Shown here: positions 1,999 through 49,890 of the stretch, one piece after another | Layout: each line of letters starts with the position of its first letter | Position numbering within the stretch: position 1 is the stretch's first letter | Sequence record: NC_049853.1 | DNA: 49,890 nt | Source: Escherichia phage Henu8 | Strand: one strand, 5' to 3' | The notes under the pieces: generated by a model | What the model saw: the letters and a program-made list of their open reading frames with translations, nothing else | Told to the model about the DNA's origin: nothing | Database searches by the model: none | Translations under genes and position numbers: made by a program

Positions 1999-2247
1999 CT
2001 CAACTGGCGATTATTCAAACTATTCCATTAATCAGGAATAACAGGAATAACTCATTCGCGATCACCTGGATTGTGAGACTTTGAGTTTGGTCAATTTTAA
2101 TCAGTTGATTAACTTTTTGTGTGGAGGGGATAGAGAAACGCGGCCCTCTTGCGTCCTTTCCGGCAATCCTGGCGCGCGCATCTGTTATTTCTGTTCCCTG
2201 CGTTATCGCAATCAAGCCTCCGCACTTTTAGATAACAGAATCGGCGT

Positions 2248-2470
2248 TCATCAACAAAAAGAACAAAATAAAATTTATATATATACCCATAAAATCAATA
2301 AGTTAGTTATATATGTATTTATATTTGTTATTTACTGTTGAGCTTGTTCTATGGGTATATGGTGGAGTGGTATTGTTTGTGGTGATATGTATGTGTGATT
2401 GTATATTTTTTAATCAATTGTGATGTGTGGTGATTTTTGTATGTATATATATAGGTATGGGGCAATCCTC
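2248..2470. repeat. TA/TG-rich element, copy A (homologous to 31921-32150)
   Basis: Shared blocks CAAAAAG.AACAA.AATA, ATATATATAC, AAATCAATAAGTTAG, GGTGATTTTT; many GTGAT/TGTGA units; sits in a ~590-bp region without a convincing ORF. Confidence 0.55.
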
Positions 2471-2585: not shown

Positions 2586-2614
2586 TTGACATGTATGAAA
2601 GGCAAGGCAATAAT
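2586..2614 (+). promoter_or_regulatory. sigma70-like promoter (TTGACA-17-AATAAT)
   Basis: TTGACA at 2586-2591, 17-nt spacer, AATAAT at 2609-2614, upstream of first plus-strand gene. Confidence 0.5.
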
Positions 2615-2650: not shown

Positions 2651-3121
2651 ATGAGCGAAGAAAATATTAGCACCATGTCGCGTAGTGAGTTCTGCGATAT
2701 GCTTCGCAGCCTTGGCGCGGCAATTGGTAGCGGCGAGCGTAACAATGTATTCATGCCAGCACTTTTCTTGTGCGCTAACGTGGAGAACGGCGACGCAATT
2801 ACAGCATCGTACATGCGCCAGGTTGTCAACCGTGTGCCAGAAGTAAAGCAAAAAGGCGTGATCAGCATTAAGCGAAAGGTGACTGATGAGGGTGATGGCT
2901 TTGTGTTTACGCTCACTGAAGCCAAAAGCAAGCCTCGCGTGCTGACTGGAGACGATATAGCGAAACTTGAAATCAAGTGGCGAGCAAAGTTTATTGCTCA
3001 ACTTCTGAAAACTCAGCCGAGAATCAGCGATCTTGAAGGCGAGCGCCTGGAGGGTGCGGCAATCGCACTTGAGCGAATGAATGAAATGCTTAACGAGATG
3101 GTAAAGATGGGGGATGAATAA
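2651..3121 (+). CDS. hypothetical early protein (156 aa)
   Basis: ORF 2591..3121 trimmed to ATG 2651 with AAGGAG SD; the 2591 ATG lies inside the promoter -35. Confidence 0.6.
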   Translation: MSEENISTMSRSEFCDMLRSLGAAIGSGERNNVFMPALFLCANVENGDAITASYMRQVVNRVPEVKQKGVISIKRKVTDEGDGFVFTLTEAKSKPRVLTGDDIAKLEIKWRAKFIAQLLKTQPRISDLEGERLEGAAIALERMNEMLNEMVKMGDE

Positions 3122-3381
3122 TGAATAAGGCATTAATTGGAGTTTTGGTTGCAATCGCTACCCTGACCGGATGCGAAAAGGCATCTGAATCAACAGTTGT
3201 CGTAGGCGTGAGGTCGGATTTTAAAGTCGGTCGCCTGTTTACTGTTGATGGATGCACTGCGTACCGATTCTATGACAACGGTCGAGCAATCTATTACACC
3301 AATTGTAATGGCGCAACGGATAGCACATACCGGAGCGGCAAAAACGTAATGCACCAACAAGTCACAACAGATGTTAAATAG
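3121..3381 (+). CDS. putative lipoprotein (86 aa)
   Basis: N-terminus MNKALIGVLVAIATLTGC = signal peptide plus lipobox (LTGC); GGGGGA SD. Confidence 0.6.
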   Translation: MNKALIGVLVAIATLTGCEKASESTVVVGVRSDFKVGRLFTVDGCTAYRFYDNGRAIYYTNCNGATDSTYRSGKNVMHQQVTTDVK

Positions 3382-3421
3382 CACTTTTTGTTAAAACGCC
3401 AGGTGCAAATCCTGGCATAAT
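3376..3421 (+). promoter_or_regulatory. conserved phage promoter motif + -10 (CATAAT)
   Basis: AAATAGCACTTTTTGTTAAAAC (stop TAG embedded), 18-nt spacer holding inverted repeat GCCAGG..CCTGGC, then CATAAT at 3416-3421. Confidence 0.55.
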
Positions 3422-4474: not shown

Positions 4475-5362
4475 ATGTTAAAACTTGCTAACATTAAATT
4501 TCCGATCACCTTCGAATCTCGCGGCGTTGGTCACTTCATGTTTTCCGACGAAAATACATGCACTAAGTTTAACGAATACGGCAAGCCTGATGTTTCAACA
4601 ATGGAGATTGAGAACTTCATTGATGCGCATAACAAGCACTACAACTCACTCAAAGACTACGCCTACGCAATGCCAGGCTATACATGTTTCCACTACAAGC
4701 CATATAAAGGCCAGGTGCTTCCAGTTCGCTCACCAGAACGCGCAGAGATTCATACGGTCGAGATGAAAACCTGCGACTACAAGAAATTGTGGTGCTTAAA
4801 CGTGGATAATATCAAGTATCCGATTGTTTTTCATTGTGGCGGTTCAACAATCAGGTACACATCTCGCGACAATGGCGTTTATAGCGATGGTCAGAAATCC
4901 GAGTTGAAAGTTGATTTCTTTGTTAATGGTCATAACAAATTCAATCCACACAACGAAAAAGATAAGGTGTATTACGTGGAAGATATTACAAAACACTTGT
5001 TTGGAGAAACTCCATTCGGCGGCGGAAAGACGTCAATTCAACAAATCATTGGCGAGGAGATCCACAAGGCAGCCGTTAAAATGAAAGCGCCTGGAGGCTG
5101 GCGTATTGACAAGAGCGCCTTTGCCTATCAAGAAATCGTAACTCAGGGCGCAATTGAACATATGCCAGTTGCAGCCACGCTAAAAGGCGTCCAAATTGCT
5201 GATGGCGCATGGTTTGAATTAACGGCAAAACCAAAGACGATCGAGATTCATGATGACGTTGTTATTCTTCTTCTTCACTATGGCAGCGCGAAAAGCCGGA
5301 CGGTTGCAGGAGAGATCAGCATCAAGCGCGGAACGATGGTTAAGTGGAAGGTTAAAGTGTAA
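4475..5362 (+). CDS. hypothetical protein (295 aa)
   Basis: ORF track; AGGAGA SD; no motif recognised by eye. Confidence 0.65.
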   Translation: MLKLANIKFPITFESRGVGHFMFSDENTCTKFNEYGKPDVSTMEIENFIDAHNKHYNSLKDYAYAMPGYTCFHYKPYKGQVLPVRSPERAEIHTVEMKTCDYKKLWCLNVDNIKYPIVFHCGGSTIRYTSRDNGVYSDGQKSELKVDFFVNGHNKFNPHNEKDKVYYVEDITKHLFGETPFGGGKTSIQQIIGEEIHKAAVKMKAPGGWRIDKSAFAYQEIVTQGAIEHMPVAATLKGVQIADGAWFELTAKPKTIEIHDDVVILLLHYGSAKSRTVAGEISIKRGTMVKWKVKV

Positions 5363-5405
5363 ATAGCACGAATTGTTAAAACTCAAATGTGGGGCCAGGT
5401 ATAAT
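5363..5405 (+). promoter_or_regulatory. conserved phage promoter motif (variant) + -10 (TATAAT)
   Basis: ATAGCACGAATTGTTAAAAC following stop TAA; 17-nt spacer; TATAAT at 5400-5405. Confidence 0.5.
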
Positions 5406-31534: not shown

Positions 31535-31566
31535 AAAAAGGGGCTTTCGCCCCTTTGTTTTTATTT
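31534..31566. terminator. bidirectional rho-independent terminator between convergent genes
   Basis: A-run, GGGGC-TTTC-GCCCC hairpin, T-run. Confidence 0.65.
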
Positions 31567-31792
31567 ACAGACTGCAATCAGCGTTTTTAAAGTTATCAAT
31601 ACTTACCCACTGAAAATTAAACGGATAGCCAGCCTTAACAAGAGTGCGTTCGCCAACTCGCTTTACTCCAAAAATAGCAACTGAATACTGCATACCGCTA
31701 TTTTCATAAATAGCCGTGCATTCACGCTTAGGCATATTTGCACATCCAGTCAGGGCAATGGCTGCAATCAAAACGGCGATTAACTTTTTCAT
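31565..31792 (-). CDS. cor: Cor-like superinfection-exclusion lipoprotein
   Basis: 75 aa; MKKLIAVLIAAIALTGC signal peptide plus lipobox; GAAGGAG SD; convergent with tail genes and driven by its own promoter. Confidence 0.55.
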   Translation of the reverse strand: MKKLIAVLIAAIALTGCANMPKRECTAIYENSGMQYSVAIFGVKRVGERTLVKAGYPFNFQWVSIDNFKNADCSL

Positions 31793-31823
31793 CTTGGTAT
31801 CTCCTTCGTTGTTGTTGGTTGCA

Positions 31824-31867
31824 ACTATACACGATCTTGCGATTGGCGTTTAGCAAAAAGTGCTATT
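31824..31867 (-). promoter_or_regulatory. conserved phage promoter motif (variant) + -10 (TATAGT) for the cor-like gene
   Basis: Minus-strand AATAGCACTTTTTGCTAAAC, 18-nt spacer, TATAGT. Confidence 0.5.
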
Positions 31868-31920
31868 CTTGTTCTTTTTGTTATCCTGTGTTCTCAAATC
31901 TGCGGAGTCTTAAATTTAGC

Positions 31921-32150
31921 TCAAAAAGTGAACAACAATAGAGCGCAATGCATACAGATAAATATATATACATACATATAAATCAATAAGTTAGTAGTAT
32001 ATATATTCATGTTTGTTCTTTATTGTTATCTATGTTTTGTGTGATTTTGTGTGTCTGGTGATTTTTCTGTGATTATGCATGTGTCAGTGGTTATGTGTGT
32101 CTATATATCTATATCCGGCGCAAATGGAGGAACAAGAGAACAAAAATACA
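31921..32150. repeat. TA/TG-rich element, copy B (homologous to 2248-2470)
   Basis: Same shared blocks as copy A (AAATCAATAAGTTAG, ATATATATAC, GGTGATTTTT, GTGAT units); in a ~500-bp region without an ORF. Confidence 0.55.
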
Positions 32151-32237
32151 ACAAAGGTATTTATCAATCACTTACATGTGAATTTTGTTATCCAATTCTC
32201 CTAGAACGTTGTTAGAACAGAAAAAACAAAATAACCA

Positions 32238-32265
32238 TTGACTAAACGCATTAAATAGCTAAAAT
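32238..32265 (+). promoter_or_regulatory. sigma70-like promoter (TTGACT-16-TAAAAT)
   Basis: TTGACT 32238-32243, TAAAAT 32260-32265, upstream of the exonuclease gene. Confidence 0.5.
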
Positions 32266-32294
32266 GCAGGCATACCAACCAACGAGGGAAAATC

Positions 32295-33356
32295 ATGAAT
32301 AAGTTTATGGCGTACACCAGCGAAGAAATGAGTAACGAGCTTTATCACGATCCAGAAGCGTGGACGGCTGATTATGTTAGCGGTTCAAGCCTGGCAGAGA
32401 TTTACAGCACATGCCCGGCAGCGTGGAAGTTCAAGCCGCGTGATGACAAGAGCAAGGCGCTAGTTTTCGGTACGCAGTCGCATACCAACTTTGAAAGCAA
32501 GGAGCTTTTCGAAAAAACCTATCGCCGTGCGCCAGCGCCAGAAGACTTTAAGGATCTGATAACCAGCCAAACGGCGCTTGCTGCAAAGCTAAAGTCATTT
32601 GGCCTGAAAGGTACAACAGGAAAGACTTACCCTGAACTTATAAAAATGATGGTTGACTGCGGAGAAGACCTTAACGTCATGTGGTTAATCGACATGATCG
32701 CAGAAAGTCAGGCCAGGGCCGATGGGGTTCAGTTAATCGAAGCTAAAGATTACGATTCGTGCGTGGCAATGCGCCAGGTTCTGGAATCAATACCGGAACA
32801 TAACGCATGTATGAATAGCAAGACGGCACAACGTGAATTATCGTTGTTCGGTGAAATTAACGGCGTAAAAGTCAAAGTGCGATGCGATCACGTTGACGTA
32901 ACAAAGAACGTCACCGCAACGCTGATTGATGGTTACGATGAAAAAGGTCAGCCGATTTGCCGCGATATTATTTATCCAGAAGCTATTGTGATCACTGACT
33001 ACAAAACAACAATGAGCGCTAATCCTGTTGAGTTTATGCGCCTGGCTTACAATCACGGCTATTATTTGAAAATGGCGTTGCAATGTGATTTATTCAGAAA
33101 GGCGTATCCAGAAGAAAATCGACCTATAGTTGTGCGACTGTTAGCGCAAGAGAAGAAAGAGCCTTATTTGCCGTTGGCTTTCCGCATGAACAGTGAGCAA
33201 TTGAAGATAGGGCGCATTCAGTACATGAGCGTAATTAACCAGTTTGCCATGTGCCAGCAACATGACGTTTGGCCTTCGTATTCAAACGGCGAGCCGGAGG
33301 TTTGCCTTGATACTCCTGATTGGGTGCGACGCCAGTTTAAGCAATATCTTATTTAA
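32295..33356 (+). CDS. recombination exonuclease (PD-(D/E)XK family)
   Basis: 353 aa; ...VITDYKT... (D-x-K core) after acidic residues; first gene of an exonuclease, Erf, SSB series. Confidence 0.6.
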   Translation: MNKFMAYTSEEMSNELYHDPEAWTADYVSGSSLAEIYSTCPAAWKFKPRDDKSKALVFGTQSHTNFESKELFEKTYRRAPAPEDFKDLITSQTALAAKLKSFGLKGTTGKTYPELIKMMVDCGEDLNVMWLIDMIAESQARADGVQLIEAKDYDSCVAMRQVLESIPEHNACMNSKTAQRELSLFGEINGVKVKVRCDHVDVTKNVTATLIDGYDEKGQPICRDIIYPEAIVITDYKTTMSANPVEFMRLAYNHGYYLKMALQCDLFRKAYPEENRPIVVRLLAQEKKEPYLPLAFRMNSEQLKIGRIQYMSVINQFAMCQQHDVWPSYSNGEPEVCLDTPDWVRRQFKQYLI

Positions 33357-35498: not shown

Positions 35499-37799
35499 TT
35501 AACTCTCAAGAGTTGTTGGCTTGTTGATCAATGCAGAAACAACCGCTTTCAGTTCTGCAACCTCCTTTTCAAGTTTGCTTATGCGATCATCGCTTTCACG
35601 GCACACTTTCACCAGCAATCCAGTAACAGCGCCATAATCAACAGATAAGAATCTTTCCTCGCCAACTAACTGATTTCCATCCTTAGTTGGACCAGCAAGA
35701 TCCGTGTACTGAGTGAATCCGCCAACCGCTTCCGGTATTGCCTCCATTACTTCTTGAGCAATTACCCCAGCATAAGGTAAACCATTCTCCTTAAGCGTGT
35801 AAGTGTATCCGCTCATTTTGCGCAATGATTCAGTTGCGTTCTCAATCTCCTCAATGTTGTCCTTAAGATCTCTGTCAGATGCTTGATTGAATGCTGTCGC
35901 ATTTACATGGCCGTTAACTTGAAGATACTTTGAGTTATCTTTATTTAACTGACAGTAAAAACCCCACCCAGGGCCGTTATCGAAAGACCACTCAATAACT
36001 GACGGTCGATCGTTACCGTTCCCCCACAATGAGAAGGTTGCAGGATTTGATGAGTTACCATCATTAAGCATTTTGAAATACTTGCCACTCGGTCGGTCGA
36101 TCTCCAAGCTAGACGCCTGGATATATGCTTTTCCCGCAAAGTTCTTAGTCCCCAGCACAACCCCGTCGGTGTGCAATTCAACCTTAGAGGACGTAATATC
36201 GTTCAGGAACAGTGCGCTAGTACCGGTGTCCTTCCCTAAAAACCAAAGACGTGTTCCTGCTGAGTTGTACCCTGTTACGTGCAGTGGTTGGTTGTTTGTT
36301 GACGCTGTTCCGTCGATCCGGAAGCCACCATTAGCGGTTGTAACTTTAATGCTGGGTACGGTCATAGCAAATGTGCCACTGGCTGCAAGACCGTTATACG
36401 CGATCAGCTTGTTGTCATATGCAATCTCACCATTGTCCCTTAATTGCAAGAATTTATTAGATACTGAGTTGGAAACAGATACATCATTAGGCCATGTGCG
36501 AAGAACTGCGCGCTTTCCGTTCCCTCTAGCCTCCACCGAAGAGCCAGCAACAACATTGTTACCAATAATTTCACCACCAAAAGAAACGTCTCCGCCTGGA
36601 GTGAGTAACATGCATCTTTTGATCAGCGCTGAATTGTTTCTATAAGAATAGATCGCGTAATTCGGGCCATAAAAGCCAGCCCTAAAACCAGGTTGACCGT
36701 CAGCGGATAGGTAAACAGTCCAGCAACCACTACTAGATTCATCCGACGAACGTTGAATTTTTACCGCGTCTTGACTTCCTTTGAATAATTGAGAGCCAAC
36801 AAAAGTGTTTGAAACATTTAGACCAGGAGCATCAAGATTCTTTCTTGCTCCAGGAGCATTTTTCGCACCTGTTCCACCTTTATTTATTGGCAAAGCTACA
36901 TCAGATTTCGATGTAGAATCCCACATCCCCCAATCGCCATTATTTTTTACGAAAATCCGCTTTGTTCCATCAGCACTTGAAACAACAGTTTCACCATTTA
37001 CATCATTGCCTTGCAATAATCTGTCTACGCTTAGGTTTTTTCTTGCTTCACCTTTATCTTCGACATCGCTAAGGTTGTTGTTTTTGTTAAGAATATTTGC
37101 AGGATTTATGCTATCTGCATATTCTTTCGCCTTATCTTCAGAAGCCTTAGCGGCATTTTTTGAATCCAGAGCATCAGAAGCAGATCTTGCAGCTTCGCTC
37201 TTGCTTGCATTGGCTGAATTCTCTGAATTTTTGGCATTTGTCTCCGACGTCTTTGCTGCATTCTGAGAAGCGAGCGCAGCATCCTGAGAATTTTTAGCGG
37301 CATTCTTGCTTGCATTGGCTGCATTTTCAGATGCTTTAGCGTTAGTCTCCGATGCTTTAGAGTTTGTCTCCGAAGTCTTTGCGGCGGCAGCGCTTTGTTT
37401 TGCTGATTCAGCGCCTTGCTTGACTTGATTTACAAGATCTTTCAATCCTTCAAGATCAAAGTCTCTAAAAAATTCAATTGCATCCGCGATCTCTGTTTCT
37501 TTGCTTTGATAGTAACGCAATGTTTCAGCTACATCTTGAGCAAGACCATCAACAGTTATTGAGTCATGAAGTAAGATCGCGTAATTTGAACGGGTAACTA
37601 CCGCGCCACCAGTTGTAATTGCACGAATGCTTGTATCGTTAATAACTTCAGTTATCACGGCAATCTGCAACGGCTGAGTTAAAAATACAATAGTTGCACC
37701 AGGGCGAATGAGCGTTAGTTGCTCTCGCCATTTTGTGTCGTATCCAGTGATATAACCTTGCGCGTCCATTGACGCTTGTCCTGTTCTGTAAATTGCCAT
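35499..37799 (-). CDS. tail fibre protein with C-terminal intramolecular chaperone (S74-like) domain
   Basis: Trimmed to ATG 37799 (GGAGA SD); Ala/Ser/Asn-rich tandem repeats ([22 protein letters not shown]...); C-terminal [15 protein letters not shown]...[17 protein letters not shown]. Confidence 0.75.
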
Positions 37800-37860
37800 G
37801 CGCTTTCTCCAATGTTGCATGTTAATGTCAATGAAGATAATAGCATTTGCTAAGGCCAAA

Positions 37861-37897: not shown

Positions 37898-38830
37898 TTA
37901 GAGAATTGATTCAGGTTTGAAAACCTTCCTCTCTATCCCTTGCCTGTAATTATCATTAATCGGCATCATAATTTCAAGACCTCTTTCCTCTGCGGCAATG
38001 ATAGCGTCACGATCTGTGCTCTTACAGACAACTCGCATTCTTCTGTTGCCTTTATACCTGTAAGCCACAATCTCAATGTTAGTCGCATCAAAGCAGGCCC
38101 AAACCTCTTGACCAGTTGCAAGGTGAATATGTTGCGCATCAATCCAGTCAACGCAAAGATAGATAGTCTTATCTGTGCTTCCTGTTCTCACAACCGACCC
38201 GCGCGTGTAATCCTTAGCGAGAAAAGATTTATTTCCTTCTTCATCAATGAAAAGCACATTGCACATTTCATCATCAATCTCATCTGAGTGTACCAGGTAA
38301 CATGGCAACGCGTGAATGTATCGACCATCTTTAACGCCGCATTCATAATAACCATCTTCAGGCGGATATATCCCTTCATATGTACTTAACGGCGTGCGAT
38401 CAAATTTTAGTGTTTTTGACATAACGCGCTCGCAGCATTCATGGCTTGCCTGTTTCCCAAACGAATAACCAGAATCACGAGATACTCGCTTATTTGCCTT
38501 GATCCTATAGTCCTGAGGAACTTTTCCAAGAAAGCGGCCCAAAATATTGATCACTTCGCCGTAAGGTTCTCCGGTTAGCTTCATGATCCAACCAATTCCA
38601 GTATCGTTTCCGCACACATTGCAGATAGCGCCGCCGTCGCCTTTTTTATCTCCAAGTTTATCAGTCCATCTAAAGCGATCCTTTCCGCCGCAGTGTGGGC
38701 AAGATTGATGCTTGCCGTTAAAAACTTCATTTGGAAGACCGCAAATACTTTGTAGCGCCTCACGCCATAATCCCTGCATATATGGGAGAACATCTTCCTT
38801 TTGATAAACCATAAAGTTTTCGTTGTTCAT
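37898..38830 (-). CDS. putative DNA primase (zinc-ribbon)
   Basis: Trimmed to ATG 38830; CPHCGG...CNVCG zinc ribbon near N-terminus; position adjacent to the helicase. Confidence 0.5.
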
Positions 38831-38885
38831 ATGCACCTCAAACAAAAAAGCCTGACAGATGATAACATCATGCCAGGCATTGTTT

Positions 38886-39359
38886 TTAGCAATTAGTGCT
38901 TTCAGGTTTATACAGGAATCCGCCAGGCTCATAATCTGACATTCTTACCACTCGCAACATTTCACGCTTATCACATCTCTTTGTGAGCGGTTTGCCATTG
39001 GAATCAAATCGCAGATCTGGACGGCAGAATGACGCGCGATAGCCTTGACAGCCATACTTTTTGTAATCGTTATGCACCTTTTGAGCGCCAGCGGCTGAAA
39101 TCATACCGCGAACTCGCCACTGATTTACAGTTTGCTGGCTAACGTTAAGACGTTTTGCCATTGCTGACACACTTCCGTAATACTCAATAAGGATGTCAAG
39201 TCTCGCTTTTAGTCCGGCGCGCACTTCATCTTTTAAAACATAGTATCCAGTAGGGCGCTTGCGCTTCTTCTTATCTTTACCCCGTCGAGTTCCGTTATTG
39301 CCATTAATTGTGCGCTTGTCAATCTTGCCAGTTGATACTGCGATTCGCTGTTCTTTCAT
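38886..39359 (-). CDS. HTH DNA-binding protein
   Basis: 157 aa; GGAGA SD; helix-turn-helix-like AKRLNVSQQTVNQW; basic Lys/Arg-rich N-terminus. Confidence 0.55.
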   Translation of the reverse strand: MKEQRIAVSTGKIDKRTINGNNGTRRGKDKKKRKRPTGYYVLKDEVRAGLKARLDILIEYYGSVSAMAKRLNVSQQTVNQWRVRGMISAAGAQKVHNDYKKYGCQGYRASFCRPDLRFDSNGKPLTKRCDKREMLRVVRMSDYEPGGFLYKPESTNC

Positions 39360-43988: not shown

Positions 43989-45101
43989 ATGAAAATTAAA
44001 ATAAGCGATGAACAATTTATCAATGAGCGCAAGCAGGGAAAGACATATAAGCAGATCGCTAATGAGTATGGCATGAACGTTCGCAGCATTGAGCGACGAG
44101 CGGCACGATTAGCAAAGCAAGGTAAAGTTACAACCATCGGATCGCCTGGTTTTGGTGTTACTGGAGAATCAAAGCTAATTGATAAAGATGGCAATGTGGT
44201 TATGACATGGATTAAGACAAGTAAGGACCGCGAACAGTTAGAAGCATTAATGCAGGCCGCTATGGATGCATTTAGCGAAGAAGTTCCTAGACTTGATCCG
44301 CAACCAGAATCAAAAAAGGATTATAGCGAGACGTTATCACTGTATCCGATCTTTGATATGCACTTGGGCGCAATGGCGCATAAGCATGAATGCGGCGAGA
44401 ATTGGGATACAGCAACAGCAGAGCGCGTAATGAATAATTTCATTGATTATTCCATCCAGTGCGCGCCGGATAGTGAAAAGGCTGTTTTGCTGATTGGTGG
44501 TGACATGCTGCATAGTGACGGCTTGGAAGCAGTGACACCTGCAAGCGGTCACGTATTGGATCAAGATAGTCGATACGCAAAACTTGTTTATGTTGCCATA
44601 CGGTCAGTGCGTAGAGCAATTACAAAGCTGTTATCAAAACACAAAAACGTCGAGATTCAGATCATTGAAGGCAACCACGACCAAAGCGGCATGATCTGGT
44701 TGCGCGCAGCAATGGCGGCAGCATATGAGAATGAGCCGCGAGTGCATGTTGATGTTTCTCCGCGAGTAGTTCATCACACACAATATGGCAAAACATTCCT
44801 GGCATACCATCATGGGCATACTATCCGCAAGCCTGAAACATTACTAATGATGTGCGCGGCAGACTGGCGCGAAGACTTCGGAAATTCAAAAATGATGTAT
44901 GCTCACGTAGGGCACTGGCATCATCAGACAGTAACTGAAACAAGCCTTGGTATTGTTGAAGTGCATAGCACTATGGCGGCAAAAGATGCATATGCGGCGC
45001 GCGGTGGATGGCGTTCTCGTCGCCGTGCGGCTGTTATTGTTTATGATAAAGAATACGGAGAAGTAGGGCGATTTATGCATTATCCAGAAATGGCTGGTTG
45101 A
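43989..45101 (+). CDS. calcineurin-like metallophosphoesterase with N-terminal HTH
   Basis: 370 aa; GGDMLH ... GNHD ... GHWHH metallophosphatase motifs; N-terminal KTYKQIANEYGMNVRSIERR HTH-like. Confidence 0.65.
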   Translation: MKIKISDEQFINERKQGKTYKQIANEYGMNVRSIERRAARLAKQGKVTTIGSPGFGVTGESKLIDKDGNVVMTWIKTSKDREQLEALMQAAMDAFSEEVPRLDPQPESKKDYSETLSLYPIFDMHLGAMAHKHECGENWDTATAERVMNNFIDYSIQCAPDSEKAVLLIGGDMLHSDGLEAVTPASGHVLDQDSRYAKLVYVAIRSVRRAITKLLSKHKNVEIQIIEGNHDQSGMIWLRAAMAAAYENEPRVHVDVSPRVVHHTQYGKTFLAYHHGHTIRKPETLLMMCAADWREDFGNSKMMYAHVGHWHHQTVTETSLGIVEVHSTMAAKDAYAARGGWRSRRRAAVIVYDKEYGEVGRFMHYPEMAG

Positions 45102-45144
45102 ACTTTTAATCATTAAAATATAAATATAAATCATCAATTTAATT

Positions 45145-45176
45145 GGGCGTGGCATTTTGCTTCGCCCTTTTTTTAT
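45145..45176 (+). terminator. rho-independent terminator before lysis cassette
   Basis: GGGCG-N13-CGCCC hairpin followed by T7. Confidence 0.55.
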
Positions 45177-45247
45177 TCCTTTTTGTGCGTTCAATGGTTA
45201 GGATACAATCAATTAATTGTTGACTTTTATATACAGGAGATCTAATC

Positions 45248-45463
45248 ATGAAAGATTTTTTAAACGCTGCAACTTCCGGCACTGGCGGCGCGTCAATCAC
45301 TGGCGCGGTAACTGGTCAAACAACCATTGCAATAGCCAGCTTCGTTTTGATGGCTGCATTTGGTATGTGGGGCGCTTATCTTCGCTGGCGTGATAGTAAG
45401 GCGCTACGTGACGCGCTTGAATGCGGTGATATTAAGAAAGCTATTGAGATCAGAGGTAAATAA
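45248..45463 (+). CDS. holin
   Basis: 71 aa; AGGAG SD; hydrophobic core with charged C-terminus; directly upstream of the endolysin. Confidence 0.65.
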
Positions 45464-46867: not shown

Positions 46868-48451
46868 TCACCCCAACAATGTTGGATTTACGAAAACAAC
46901 GCCATTAATCACACAAATATAATTTCTTTCTTCAAGCATCGGCAGCAGTTGCGTTTCCATGCGCTTCATTACGCCAGCCTGACCAACAAACGGCTTAACT
47001 TTTCGTGCTGCCTCATATATGGCGCGCACATTCAAGATTCCCTTATTAGCCTTGCCGTGTCGAGTGATGATCTCGATTAGTTTACCCATTTCAGCATCAT
47101 CACCAGCGTAGCCAGAAGCGTTGGCGGCGCTAATGTATGTTTTGCTCAACTCGCTAAACATCAGTAATGCTTCCTGAACGGTTTCAACTTCAATCTCTTT
47201 CGACTTCTGAGGGTATCCGCCAGGATTAAACCAGTTGCGGATAGTGTGCAAAACTGAAGCAATCCTGATCACCTGCTTATCCATTTTGCCAAGCGCGCCG
47301 CGCAGCATTGTATGCGAATACTTTCCTCCATCGGCAAGGTGCGGCTCCATCTCCTGACGAGCCATGTTAAGCACTCGCATTGCTGATTTGCTGATCTTAA
47401 GCTGGATGTTTGATTCGCTCATGATGTTATGGATCAGCTTAAAATATTGACTTTTCAGTTCTCCATCAACAGGCTCATAAGTCGAATCACCGTTATCATC
47501 AACAAACTTTCTACGGCCTAAAAATGATTCCTCACGTACAAGCAAATAACGCTCACTTACACCGATACCGCGCGATCCTGCATCCATGATGGCATTGATT
47601 GTTTCATCCTGGGCAATTACGGCCATACAGCCAAGAGCTTTAAAACTCATATTGTTGTCAGCGTTTGCACGAGCTATAGAAACATGACCATGATCCCATG
47701 CTTTTAGCACAAGTTCGCTGTTGGTTTTACGTTCGCTATTGGCATATGTCAGACCTAAAAGGCTGTTAATACTCGTTGCCTCGTCTGAAATTACAGCAAA
47801 GTTTCCCTGGCGGTTGTTGATTCTTGCAAGTCCTTCCGGCGTTGTGTCTGAGACAGGGAAAACAATGTCACACATCTTTTCCAGCTTTTCTTCCAGATCT
47901 TCTTTCTCCTGGTACAGAGATTCCATATCAGCTCCGGAACGCTCGCTTTTCATTTCCTTTGCAAGACCTGCCAACTTTGCCTGAATCTTTTTTCGTTCCT
48001 TCTTTCGCTGATCATTAATTCTTTCCACCTCAGCAACCATAGGAGCAAGTGCCAGGCTGTTAACGGCAGATTTACCAGTTGAAGGAGGCTGACTTGTAAC
48101 AACATAAAGAGCGGTCGGCTGATCCGTTCCGTGATACTCAACAGTGAAGCGTCCAAGCATTGCAGCAGACACGCAGCCGATAAAATGCATATATGCCGAT
48201 GATTCAGGGAACTGAACTGATCGAGCAATGTTGCGCGCCAACTTTCCAACAACATCAACATCATTGCCAAGAGAAATTACAGGGTAGCGATCGTTTCCGT
48301 TATTAACATCATTAACCTCACCCCAAAAGCTGGACGATTGACGGTATCCGTTTGCCTGAATGGACACGCGCACCGGAGACAATCCTTGTGCATCAGCTAA
48401 TTCGATAATTTGTTTTGGTGTTAGTTTATTGGTTTCAAACGAAAAATTCAT
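46868..48451 (-). CDS. large early P-loop protein (527 aa, function unknown)
   Basis: Trimmed to ATG 48451 (AAGGAG SD, 9-nt spacer); Walker A-like TSQPPSTGKS; Lys/Glu-rich coiled-coil segment. Confidence 0.6.
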   Translation of the reverse strand: MNFSFETNKLTPKQIIELADAQGLSPVRVSIQANGYRQSSSFWGEVNDVNNGNDRYPVISLGNDVDVVGKLARNIARSVQFPESSAYMHFIGCVSAAMLGRFTVEYHGTDQPTALYVVTSQPPSTGKSAVNSLALAPMVAEVERINDQRKKERKKIQAKLAGLAKEMKSERSGADMESLYQEKEDLEEKLEKMCDIVFPVSDTTPEGLARINNRQGNFAVISDEATSINSLLGLTYANSERKTNSELVLKAWDHGHVSIARANADNNMSFKALGCMAVIAQDETINAIMDAGSRGIGVSERYLLVREESFLGRRKFVDDNGDSTYEPVDGELKSQYFKLIHNIMSESNIQLKISKSAMRVLNMARQEMEPHLADGGKYSHTMLRGALGKMDKQVIRIASVLHTIRNWFNPGGYPQKSKEIEVETVQEALLMFSELSKTYISAANASGYAGDDAEMGKLIEIITRHGKANKGILNVRAIYEAARKVKPFVGQAGVMKRMETQLLPMLEERNYICVINGVVFVNPTLLG

Positions 48452-48480
48452 TGATGATAACTCCTTTTTTTGATGCGGCA

Positions 48481-48525
48481 ATAATACCGCACCAATGCTA
48501 CCCGCATTTAACAAAAAATGCTATT
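48481..48525 (-). promoter_or_regulatory. conserved phage promoter motif + -10 (TATTAT)
   Basis: Minus-strand AAATAGCATTTTTTGTTAAA with stop TAG of gene 48521..48742 embedded; TATTAT about 20 nt downstream. Confidence 0.45.
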
Positions 48526-49156: not shown

Positions 49157-49200
49157 ATTATGCCAGGCTTTTACACCTGGCTTTTAACAAAAAGTGCTAT
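49157..49200 (-). promoter_or_regulatory. conserved phage promoter motif + -10 (CATAAT)
   Basis: Minus-strand AAATAGCACTTTTTGTTAAAAG with stop TAG embedded; 18-nt spacer with GCCAGG..CCTGGC inverted repeat; CATAAT. Confidence 0.55.
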
Positions 49201-49890
49201 TTTGCGTTTGCTTCAAAGACGGCGCGAGCAAAACCGCGCGGTGTGAGGGAGCGGATCATCTTTGTGCGAGATGATTTTCCGCCAGTTTTGACCCAACCAG
49301 GATTATCCTTGTTGTCCTCTTTCGGAAGGATTGTTGCGCGCGGAGGAATAACAAATCCGTTTCCAGTCCAAAGGCATGTTTTCTTAAAGTACCGATCCCG
49401 CGCCGGAATAATATCAGGAAAGTCGGGATGTTTATCATCTTCCGACAGATAGCCAGCATAATCGCACGGATGGAACGTATAATCAGGCTTGCGCCATAGC
49501 GTTGACAGCTTGCCTACAGGATTCTCTATCATGTACGGAACACCGAAATAATCAGCAATTTGCGCAGCAATTTTGCAAGTGTCGGCGGCCTCATCCTGGA
49601 ACGCTGGATTCTCAAGGCGTTTTTTGGTCCAATGGCGAGATCCGCTATTTGCAAGGTCAGTGCACGGCGGAAATGCCATAATGAAATCAGGCTTGCCCCA
49701 ATTTTCAAGTTTTGCGGTATATTTGAATAGCTCATCAATCCACACATTAACGTAAAAAATATTATCATGGATTATGCGCACTGACTGGTAATCACCGTGA
49801 TCGCCACCGTCAGAATTAAAGCAAATGCATTTATATCCAGCATCAGCCCAATCTTTAACGGCTTTACCAGATCCATCAAACAAAGAGAAT
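49197..49890 (-). CDS. DNA methyltransferase-like protein (C5-cytosine MTase-like PC and ENV-like motifs), partial, N-terminus beyond window end
   Basis: Open to window edge; FPPCTDLANSG (PC motif-like) and MIENPVG (ENV-like) about 45 aa apart. Confidence 0.4.
   Translation of the reverse strand, partial: FSLFDGSGKAVKDWADAGYKCICFNSDGGDHGDYQSVRIIHDNIFYVNVWIDELFKYTAKLENWGKPDFIMAFPPCTDLANSGSRHWTKKRLENPAFQDEAADTCKIAAQIADYFGVPYMIENPVGKLSTLWRKPDYTFHPCDYAGYLSEDDKHPDFPDIIPARDRYFKKTCLWTGNGFVIPPRATILPKEDNKDNPGWVKTGGKSSRTKMIRSLTPRGFARAVFEANAK

Follow-up and report, generated by a model that had tools for sequence, protein, structure and literature searches.

Background

In the pSC101 and R6K gamma origins, an IHF site is located in the AT-rich part, between the initiator sites, and both origins are dependent on DnaA boxes. 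Satellite phage P4 possesses two separated cis elements, ori and crr, which have short iterons (TGTTCACC) in common and are both bound by one replication protein; in P4, primase, helicase and origin binding reside on a single polypeptide. SaPI origins have an AT-rich centre flanked on each side by two or more short iterons, which run in opposite directions; the iteron sequence varies by lineage, and the iterons are bound by a self-loading AAA+ helicase carrying a winged helix at its C-terminus, accompanied by a separate primase (PMC9371898). Two origins were described in Bacillus phage SPP1, a pac-type siphovirus of ~44 kb, in which oriL and oriR each comprise repeats and an AT-rich unwinding element, gp38 binds both, and dA+dT-rich islands represent the strongest compositional bias of the genome (PMC6316719). 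Furthermore, oriR was proposed to stall forks, leading to concatemer synthesis by way of exonuclease, annealase, SSB and resolvase (PMC6316719).

Here we analyse one stretch of 49,890 nucleotides of Escherichia phage Henu8 (NC_049853.1), which we refer to as the window. The 501 bases around the locus under study share 97% identity with Escherichia phages JLBYU09 and JLBYU41, and 90-97% with many records of Hanrivervirus (Drexlerviridae, Tempevirinae), and on nucleotide identity the window is that of a Hanrivervirus, a T1-like Drexlerviridae phage. Its gene order agrees with T1, TLS and Rtp, and it looks like a single complete T1-like genome, circularly permuted. T1 belongs to the seven classical T phages, and T1-like phages are often met as contaminants, as candidates for therapy and as transducing phages. 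No replication origin was found in them in previous work (PMC7718038, PMC11447400). For TLS, only a 21-nt intergenic repeat without known function was described, and no iteron-like repeats anywhere in the genome (PMC11447400). This repeat (families D1/D2) occurs in 17 copies in the window, one of which adjoins the element considered below (Table 1).

Results

Two copies of one intergenic element

A sequence-only reading of the window had proposed that the element at 31921-32150 (copy B) duplicates another at 2248-2470 (copy A), and alignment bears this out. The two are 76% identical over 129 nt (2271-2396 versus 31960-32084; blastn, E ~1e-13), and their Smith-Waterman score of 55 compares with 13.3 +/- 2.1 for 300 dinucleotide-preserving shuffles (z=20); judged by these alignments, copies A and B are true paralogues. 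The similarity reaches, more weakly, into the promoter-proximal module and the promoters, and the order of the parts is common to both copies, as is their orientation relative to the downstream operon. In T1, too, the two copies are significantly alike (z=8.6), and those of Rtp, as well as those of Klebsiella phage 1513, are visibly so on side-by-side reading. Across phages, the element remains alignable at ~70% identity where the adjoining exonuclease gene stands at 77%, which indicates constraint on this non-coding DNA. A search of 5,426 E. coli genomes and 72,556 plasmids gave no copy, and hence no indication that a satellite or plasmid has borrowed the element. An exact scan of IMG/VR with AAATCAATAAGTTAGT, a 16-mer common to both copies, returned 113 contigs, mostly unrelated, as the word is too A/T-rich for specificity. 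A third-ranked AT-rich region of the window (~45041-45264) was considered and rejected: it is unrelated to either copy and constitutes an ordinary terminator-plus-promoter gap.

Copy B is contained in a 502-bp non-coding gap and, as the same reading had it, is flanked by the leftward cor-like gene and by the promoter of the exonuclease-Erf-SSB module. The cor-like gene, encoding a lipoprotein, corresponds by synteny to T1 Cor, and its annotation in JLBYU09 is superinfection exclusion. Copy A is contained in a 696-bp gap with leftward small genes on one side and rightward early genes on the other, and both copies are placed inside early-promoter control regions. The distance from copy B to the primase gene is ~6 kb in Henu8; only in Klebsiella phage 1513, where the gene order around copy B is rearranged, does copy B directly follow the primase gene. 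Copy A is ~3.3 kb away from the gene of a DUF3987 protein, along a leftward operon that wraps around the window ends.

The neighbourhood of copy A also bears on packaging. The T1 and TLS records start, by their authors' choice, at the pac end; their first positions align to window positions 2085 and 2076, respectively, ~190-200 bp left of the TA core of copy A, and an IHF core match is found within a palindrome at 2098-2110. The elements might then be pac sites for the small terminase subunit, with repeats and an IHF site as in lambda cosB or P1 pac. However, both record starts fall outside the duplicated segment, nothing at copy B corresponds to the sequence around 2033-2130, which only copy A has, copy B is ~30 kb away with no second packaging series reported in the literature found, and the TLS pac was merely restriction-mapped, hence with low precision. 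We therefore regard a packaging role of the elements as very improbable; since 2085 and 2076 lie in a segment absent from copy B, pac is more likely an A-specific segment beside the duplicated element than the element itself.

Table 1. Features of the two elements and their surroundings (positions in the window)
Feature	Position	Strand	Details
75-aa lipoprotein gene (cor-like)	31565-31792	leftward	left neighbour of copy B
T1-family 21-nt intergenic repeat aaATAGCACnnnTTGnTAAAA	31846-31868	-	oriented toward cor-like gene; adjoins element, outside duplicated core
Left motif block TTGTTCT, TTGTTATC, TGTTCTC	31869-31895	+	inverted repeats I5/I6 with right block
TA-rich imperfect palindrome, copy B	31947-32021		inverted repeat I3; arms 31947-31971 and 31997-32021
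IHF core match AATCAATAAGTTA	31981-31993	+	perfect versus consensus WATCAANNNNTTR; palindrome centre
GT-rich block	32031-32100	+	83% G+T; GTGAT at 32041, 32058, 32069; conserved unit GTGGTGATTT
Distal TA block, then G+C-containing segment CCGGCGCAAATGG	32091-32128		inverted repeats I1/I4
Right motif block AGGAACAA-GAGAACAA	32128-32148	+	GAACA-type; inverted relative to left block
Promoter-proximal module	32162-32193	+	IHF core match TATCAATCACTTA 32162-32174, then TTTTGTTATCC 32183-32193
Sigma-70 type promoter of exonuclease-Erf-SSB module, TTGACT-16-TAAAAT	32238-32265	+	-35 hexamer invariant in 10 phages
PDDEXK exonuclease gene	32295-33356	rightward	right neighbour of copy B, followed by Erf and SSB
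Copy A	2248-2470	+	same anatomy: palindrome arms, IHF core, GT-rich block, GTGAT units
Early promoter downstream of copy A, TTGACA-17-AATAAT	2586-2614	+	11/12 consensus positions

Anatomy of the element

The central TA-rich palindrome, a candidate DNA unwinding element, has 25-nt arms in copy B that are 76% complementary and enclose a centre of 25 nt; its counterpart arms in copy A occupy 2258-2283 and 2308-2333. The palindrome centre of copy A carries the identical IHF core sequence (2293-2305), and in both copies the shared 16-mer includes this perfect core consensus. Together with the two core matches listed in Table 1, it provides three perfect matches to WATCAANNNNTTR in A/T-rich context, which are predicted IHF sites. 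The window contains 10 core matches versus 4.5 expected, four of them in the two intergenic regions. Conservation of these matches across genera is partial, the central one being absent from T1, phage 1513 and Changchunvirus.

On the side of the downstream operon, a T-rich stretch precedes the GT-rich block in both copies. The block of copy A (2342-2411) is 81% G+T on the plus strand, and the blocks of the two copies are the two most G+T-rich plus-strand 70-mers of the window; among the phages compared, the block is specific to Tempevirinae and missing from T1, Rtp and phage 1513. The distal TA block forms an inverted repeat with 31957-31981, and ATCCGGCGCAAAT is conserved in cross-genus alignment A2. 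The outer blocks appear in the cross-genus alignment as TTTTGTTCC-N3-4-TGTTCAC on the left and GTGAACAA-GGAACA on the right. Finally, in both A and B, a further ~100 bp along, there follow a second IHF-type site, then ATTTTGTTATC, and then a near-consensus promoter. Both parts of this promoter-proximal module are conserved across genera and recur upstream of the copy A promoter (direct repeat D5). The promoter beyond copy B is the only sigma-70 consensus match in the 502-bp gap that faces a neighbouring gene, and the T1 record has a promoter annotated at the equivalent place.

The extreme G+T strand bias of the blocks would suit sites of recombination entry, at which easily opened, GT-rich DNA would permit strand invasion by Erf, exonuclease and SSB, or by RecA, without a dedicated initiator, and so feed recombination-dependent replication or concatemer formation. 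RecA prefers GT-rich DNA, T1 concatemers form by recombination, and copy B is always directly upstream of the exonuclease-Erf-SSB module. Yet the phages that lack the GT-rich block keep the TA core and the flanking motifs, and the lineage-specific motifs described below point to a sequence-specific binding protein, for which a passive hotspot has no need. We accordingly give recombination entry only a slim chance.

Within the GT-rich block, the sequence-only reading had singled out the GTGAT/TGTGA units, comparing them to half-sites of dimeric regulators such as CRP or to iterons. Clusters of GTGAT are indeed real and unique to copies A and B, nowhere else in the window being home to at least three same-strand units in 50 nt. 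However, the units are irregularly spaced, by 17 and 11 nt in copy B and by 13, 25 and 10 nt in copy A (2382, 2395, 2420 and 2430), and the ten-phage alignment retains only one of them across genera, GTGGTGATTT at ~32055-32064, and this in no more than part of the Tempevirinae: Hanriver-, Changchun- and Warwickvirus as well as KLB26 have it, Tlsvirus and T1 do not. For the rest of the block, composition is conserved and the units are not. The likeness to CRP and other dimeric-regulator sites consists in the TGTGA word occurring several times in the element, which differs from them in that its units are without a palindromic partner at N6, irregular in spacing and all on one strand. Neither copy contains TGTGA-N6-TCACA with up to two mismatches, and genome-wide such pairs are as frequent as by chance (22 versus 25.8). 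The broader notion that short repeats indicate where proteins bind stands, but the evidence does not bear out the specific reading of GTGAT/TGTGA. The suggestion of iterons is right in spirit and mistaken in the units, since the motifs with iteron-like or operator-like behaviour are AAGAACAA/TTGTTMT, not GTGAT.

Some records (PHB17, LL5, T1) have small hypothetical genes annotated across the region, and Henu8 has a 54-codon ORF at 32051-32215, so that the element might be taken for a small protein-coding gene or for a non-coding RNA gene. The annotated genes nevertheless differ in place and frame between records, the cross-genus alignment shows gaps of 1-2 nt, and several stop codons interrupt all six frames. 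As for an RNA, folding z-scores are +0.11 and -0.09 on the two strands, and there is no Rfam match at gathering thresholds in the whole window. Neither kind of gene is suggested by the surroundings, as no promoter-like site reads into the element, and we find a gene of either type scarcely credible.

Low duplex stability conserved across genera

When nearest-neighbour stacking energies were computed for each 100-mer, the least stable ones of the window were 2253-2352 (z=4.81) and 31952-32051 (z=4.78), with the next at 3.29. Both copies also display the highest density of TA steps, 20 per 100 nt versus a mean of 5.4. In each of the seven genera checked, the two 100-mers of lowest stability fall into the same two syntenic gaps; the genera are represented by Henu8 (Hanrivervirus), T1, TLS, Rtp, Rogue1, Klebsiella phage 1513 and Cronobacter phage ESP2949-1. 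Over these seven genomes, the top two reach z = 3.8-5.9 and the third-ranked only 3.2-3.6 in five of the seven, the margin being narrower in Rtp and ESP2949-1. Low stability is retained even where the sequence has diverged past blastn detection, as in T1, which blastn failed to retrieve with either element. What is shown by observation is the anatomy of the elements, how far it is conserved, and the statistics on it.

Other properties of the DNA are ordinary. Static curvature according to the wedge model ranges from z -2.4 to +0.6 at the elements, and cumulative GC skew tracks gene orientation only and is uninformative. Neither intergenic region contains a DnaA box (TTATCCACA, up to one mismatch), nor is there a GATC cluster, with one GATC per intergenic region versus 5.45 per kb genome-wide, which argues only against an origin resembling oriC.

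Lineage-specific words around the core

The two gaps, amounting to ~2% of each genome, were subjected to a k-mer enrichment test. In T1, all six genomic copies of TGTAACA fall into the two gaps, as do all six of TCCGCGG in Rtp and all eight of GGTAAGAT in Klebsiella phage 1513 (p=9e-14), while TLS has GTGAACA there in four of eight cases. The corresponding words of Henu8 are AAGAACAA (3/5), TTGTTCT (5/11) and TTGTTAT (6/22). The word differs from lineage to lineage while its places stay the same; it is almost confined to the two gaps and is present in both copies within a phage.

Furthermore, the distances of these motifs from the core centre agree between copies A and B, an indirect hint that one protein may bind both, and inverted pairs of the motifs bracket the core. 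In phage 1513 the words are located at -73 (minus strand) and +39/+40 (plus strand) from the core centre in both copies; in Henu8, they are at -35 (minus) and +30 (plus) in copy A and at +31 (plus) in copy B, and AAGAACAA/TTGTTMT is found on both sides in opposite orientations. In copy B, the outer blocks (31869-31895 versus 32128-32143) are opposed and an inner inverted pair likewise brackets the core; the arrangement in copy A is less regular. Words that vary by lineage and yet match between the two copies of a phage are what one would expect of binding sites for a sequence-specific DNA-binding protein encoded by the phage. In copy A of T1, an inverted TGTAACA pair, GTGTAACAC...GTGTTACA, is positioned over the -10/+1 region of the early promoter.

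Candidate partner proteins

Among the proteins of Henu8 are a zinc-ribbon primase, a Cro/C2-like HTH protein whose gene adjoins that of the primase, an SF2 helicase and a DUF3987 protein of 548 aa, in addition to Erf, SSB, the PDDEXK exonuclease and a VRR-NUC nuclease. The DUF3987 gene occupies 46868-48514, the primase gene 37898-38932, the gene of a 157-aa HTH protein 38886-39359 and that of the first early protein 2651-3121. Annotation of the T1-family primase points to similarity with P4-type alpha primases. From an alignment of 31 sequences, AlphaFold gives a confident model of the DUF3987 protein (pLDDT 86.4, pTM 0.84), and in a Foldseek comparison with the PDB, MCM replicative helicases occupy the top of the list throughout (probability 1.00, E from 3e-5), with TM-scores of just ~0.33, so that the match is to the MCM fold class and not to a close relative. 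In the model, the C-terminus (helix-strand-helix-helix-strand-strand) looks like a winged helix. A sequence search of this protein against the PDB gave nothing significant, nor did any sequence similarity to SaPI Rep come to light. Its C-terminal region is well conserved between lineages with different motifs and is, for this reason, not an obvious determinant of specificity. The putative recognition helix of the HTH regulator, in turn, varies between lineages, and the first early gene product, encoded next to copy A, is only 13-38% identical between them.

These proteins are also the candidate regulators if A and B are paralogous control regions of early transcription, in which the lineage motifs would be operators or activator sites for a phage regulator that turns the early operons on or off, either the Cro/C2-like HTH protein or the fast-evolving first early gene product. 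Such a role, which we regard as possible though on the whole doubtful, is ranked as the main rival to an origin. Each copy is located between leftward and rightward units, ~250 bp upstream of a near-consensus sigma-70 promoter, and the promoter-proximal module (the IHF-like site and ATTTTGTTATC) is common to A and B and kept across genera. Moreover, the inverted pair in copy A of T1 covers the promoter itself, HTH proteins with lineage-variable recognition helices are encoded, and a phage without its own RNA polymerase needs such regulators (PMC11447400). IHF sites and flexible TA-rich DNA could furthermore offer an architecture for looping, or for the sensing of supercoiling, between divergent promoters. 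However, an operator does not require 100 bp of the least stable DNA of the genome, which is nevertheless conserved in seven genera; the core is 220-320 bp from the promoter, beyond the range of an UP element; the curvature is ordinary; and most motif copies bracket the core, not the promoters. Transcriptional control is in any case compatible with origin function, because origins embedded in promoter regions are common.

Discussion

The conserved meltability, the opposed flanking motifs, the IHF-type site, the presence of an MCM-like helicase and a primase, and the occurrence in two copies lead us to rank first the reading that A and B are paired unwinding elements with flanking iterons, of the type found in replication origins. 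We hold it tentatively, at somewhat less than an even chance, and from these features we infer protein binding, core melting and origin activity. Against it, both copies are housed in control regions of early operons, so that the shared motifs could be operators, and neither copy adjoins the helicase or primase gene in Henu8.

If the elements are origins, a phage protein would bind the flanking motifs and IHF would bend the TA-rich core, whose opening might be aided by negative supercoiling from the divergent early promoters. The MCM-like AAA+ helicase and the zinc-ribbon primase would then enter the opened core, with the GT-rich, strand-biased flank on the side of the downstream operon. The two copies could represent either two origins, or one origin and a second initiator-bound site. 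The latter option follows the model for oriR of SPP1, in which a stalled fork brings about the switch to recombination-dependent concatemer synthesis; here, the second site would be directly upstream of the exonuclease-Erf-SSB genes.

A further-reaching version, which we consider unlikely as a whole, would extend this to all Drexlerviridae including T1. These phages would replicate from two sites, one being an origin and the other a programmed fork barrier before the exonuclease-Erf-SSB genes, with fast-evolving, lineage-specific iterons around the genome's two easiest-melting sites read by the MCM-like self-loading helicase or by an HTH partner. The barrier would switch replication to recombination-dependent concatemer synthesis, as was proposed for SPP1 oriR.

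The paired element was not found in the searchable literature. Elements of this kind are familiar, but the occurrence of one throughout the Drexlerviridae appears not to have been described, and the two copies are the first concrete candidates for replication origins of this phage family. They provide two precise places for experiments, of ~200 bp each. If confirmed as origins, they would define the start of replication for an entire phage family and tie a bacterial-virus MCM-like helicase to its loading site, and the lineage motifs would open a way to study how replication specificity is kept when related phages co-infect. If they turn out to be switches of early transcription instead, the operators of a temporal regulator would be identified in phages without their own RNA polymerase.

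Several known systems resemble the Henu8 elements in part. As in SaPI origins, opposed motif blocks bracket the least stable core, and the phage encodes an MCM-like AAA+ protein as well as a primase. In contrast, the SaPI origin is single and immediately downstream of rep, whereas Henu8 has two copies, neither next to the helicase gene; moreover, the Henu8 core is longer (~170 bp with the GT-rich flank) and includes an IHF-type site. This site, inside the AT-rich part of the element, is reminiscent of the pSC101 and R6K gamma origins, which however need the DnaA boxes that are absent here, and the IHF-type site is not present in every Drexlerviridae lineage. With regard to P4, the Tlsvirus motif GTGAACA/TGTTCAC is like the core of the P4 iteron, a likeness of only 7 nt that could be due to chance. 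It is not general either, as the motifs of T1, Rtp and phage 1513 differ, and the functions united on one polypeptide in P4 are distributed over separate genes in Henu8.

The comparison with SPP1 concerns the genome as a whole. The two phages have no sequence relationship and infect hosts of different phyla; oriL is situated inside the initiator gene, whereas both Henu8 copies are intergenic, and SPP1 employs a DnaB-type helicase with a loader where the candidate helicase of Henu8 is MCM-like. Nevertheless, Henu8, like SPP1, is a pac-type siphovirus and has two similar elements composed of repeats and AT-rich DNA together with the same set of recombination genes (exonuclease, annealase, SSB and a resolvase-type nuclease), and if its elements are confirmed as origins, the two-origin logic of SPP1 would recur in an unrelated lineage on Gram-negative hosts.

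A likely pac region and repeats around copy A

Of the two paralogous TA-rich/GT-rich non-coding elements, only copy A is accompanied by the segment at 2033-2130, which has no counterpart at copy B and contains several short motifs, among them a palindrome with a match to the IHF core inside it (table). This segment is likely the pac region, since the records of phages T1 and TLS, whose position 1 was set at the pac end, begin at points that align to 2085 and 2076, respectively. Furthermore, copy A is flanked on either side by an exact 9-nt direct repeat, GGCAATCCT (2162-2170 and 2461-2469, spacing 299 bp), which is conserved in phage BEK7, and in phage Rtp TCCGCGGAA occupies comparable flanking positions of both copies.

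The genome is rich in GATC (272 sites, 5.45 per kb), but each of the long intergenic regions (1955-2650 and 31793-32294) holds only a single one. A 34-nt 'repeat_region' (3133-3166) is marked within the GT-rich block of copy B in the GenBank record of phage haarsle (L001); among the records compared, no other annotation covers the element, even in part. Over the copy B region, database matches also included 18 unannotated GenBank 'Campylobacter phage' records (MG0656xx; 93-96 % identity to this E. coli T1-like phage), whose stated host is C. jejuni and which look like coliphage sequences under a wrong host.

Features located in the window
Feature	Position	Strand	Remark
Tandem CAGGAATAA x2	2033-2050		copy A-specific segment
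GATC	2060		copy A-specific segment
Palindrome TTAATCA-GT-TGATTAA	2095-2110		copy A-specific segment
IHF core match	2098-2110		inside the palindrome
DUF7174 gene	2651-3121	+	first of the early genes that follow copy A
Large tail-fibre-like gene	35499-37859	-	leftward
DUF3987 'DNA helicase' gene	46868-48514	-	
21-nt repeat, example sites	3376-3396, 5361-5381, 31846-31868, 1976-1998, 49180-49202		

Candidate replication and DNA-binding proteins

The DUF7174 early protein, whose C-terminus shows a weak HTH_37 signal, is a candidate lineage-specific DNA-binding protein, with just 13-38 % identity between lineages whose other replication proteins share 55-80 %. The DUF3987 protein had no significant match in the PDB by sequence; its confidently modelled structure (pLDDT 86) is MCM-like AAA+ by fold, with an apparent C-terminal winged helix.

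Repeats elsewhere in the genome

The tail-fibre-like gene contains, at 37134-37385, imperfect tandem repeats spaced at 21, 42, 105, and 147 nt. The T1-family 21-nt intergenic repeat, already described for phage TLS (PMC11447400), occurs at 17 sites in the window. It may include a -35 element, because in Klebsiella phage 1513 TTGACT replaces TTGnTA in a copy that lies upstream of the exonuclease gene, and TATACT follows 17 nt later.
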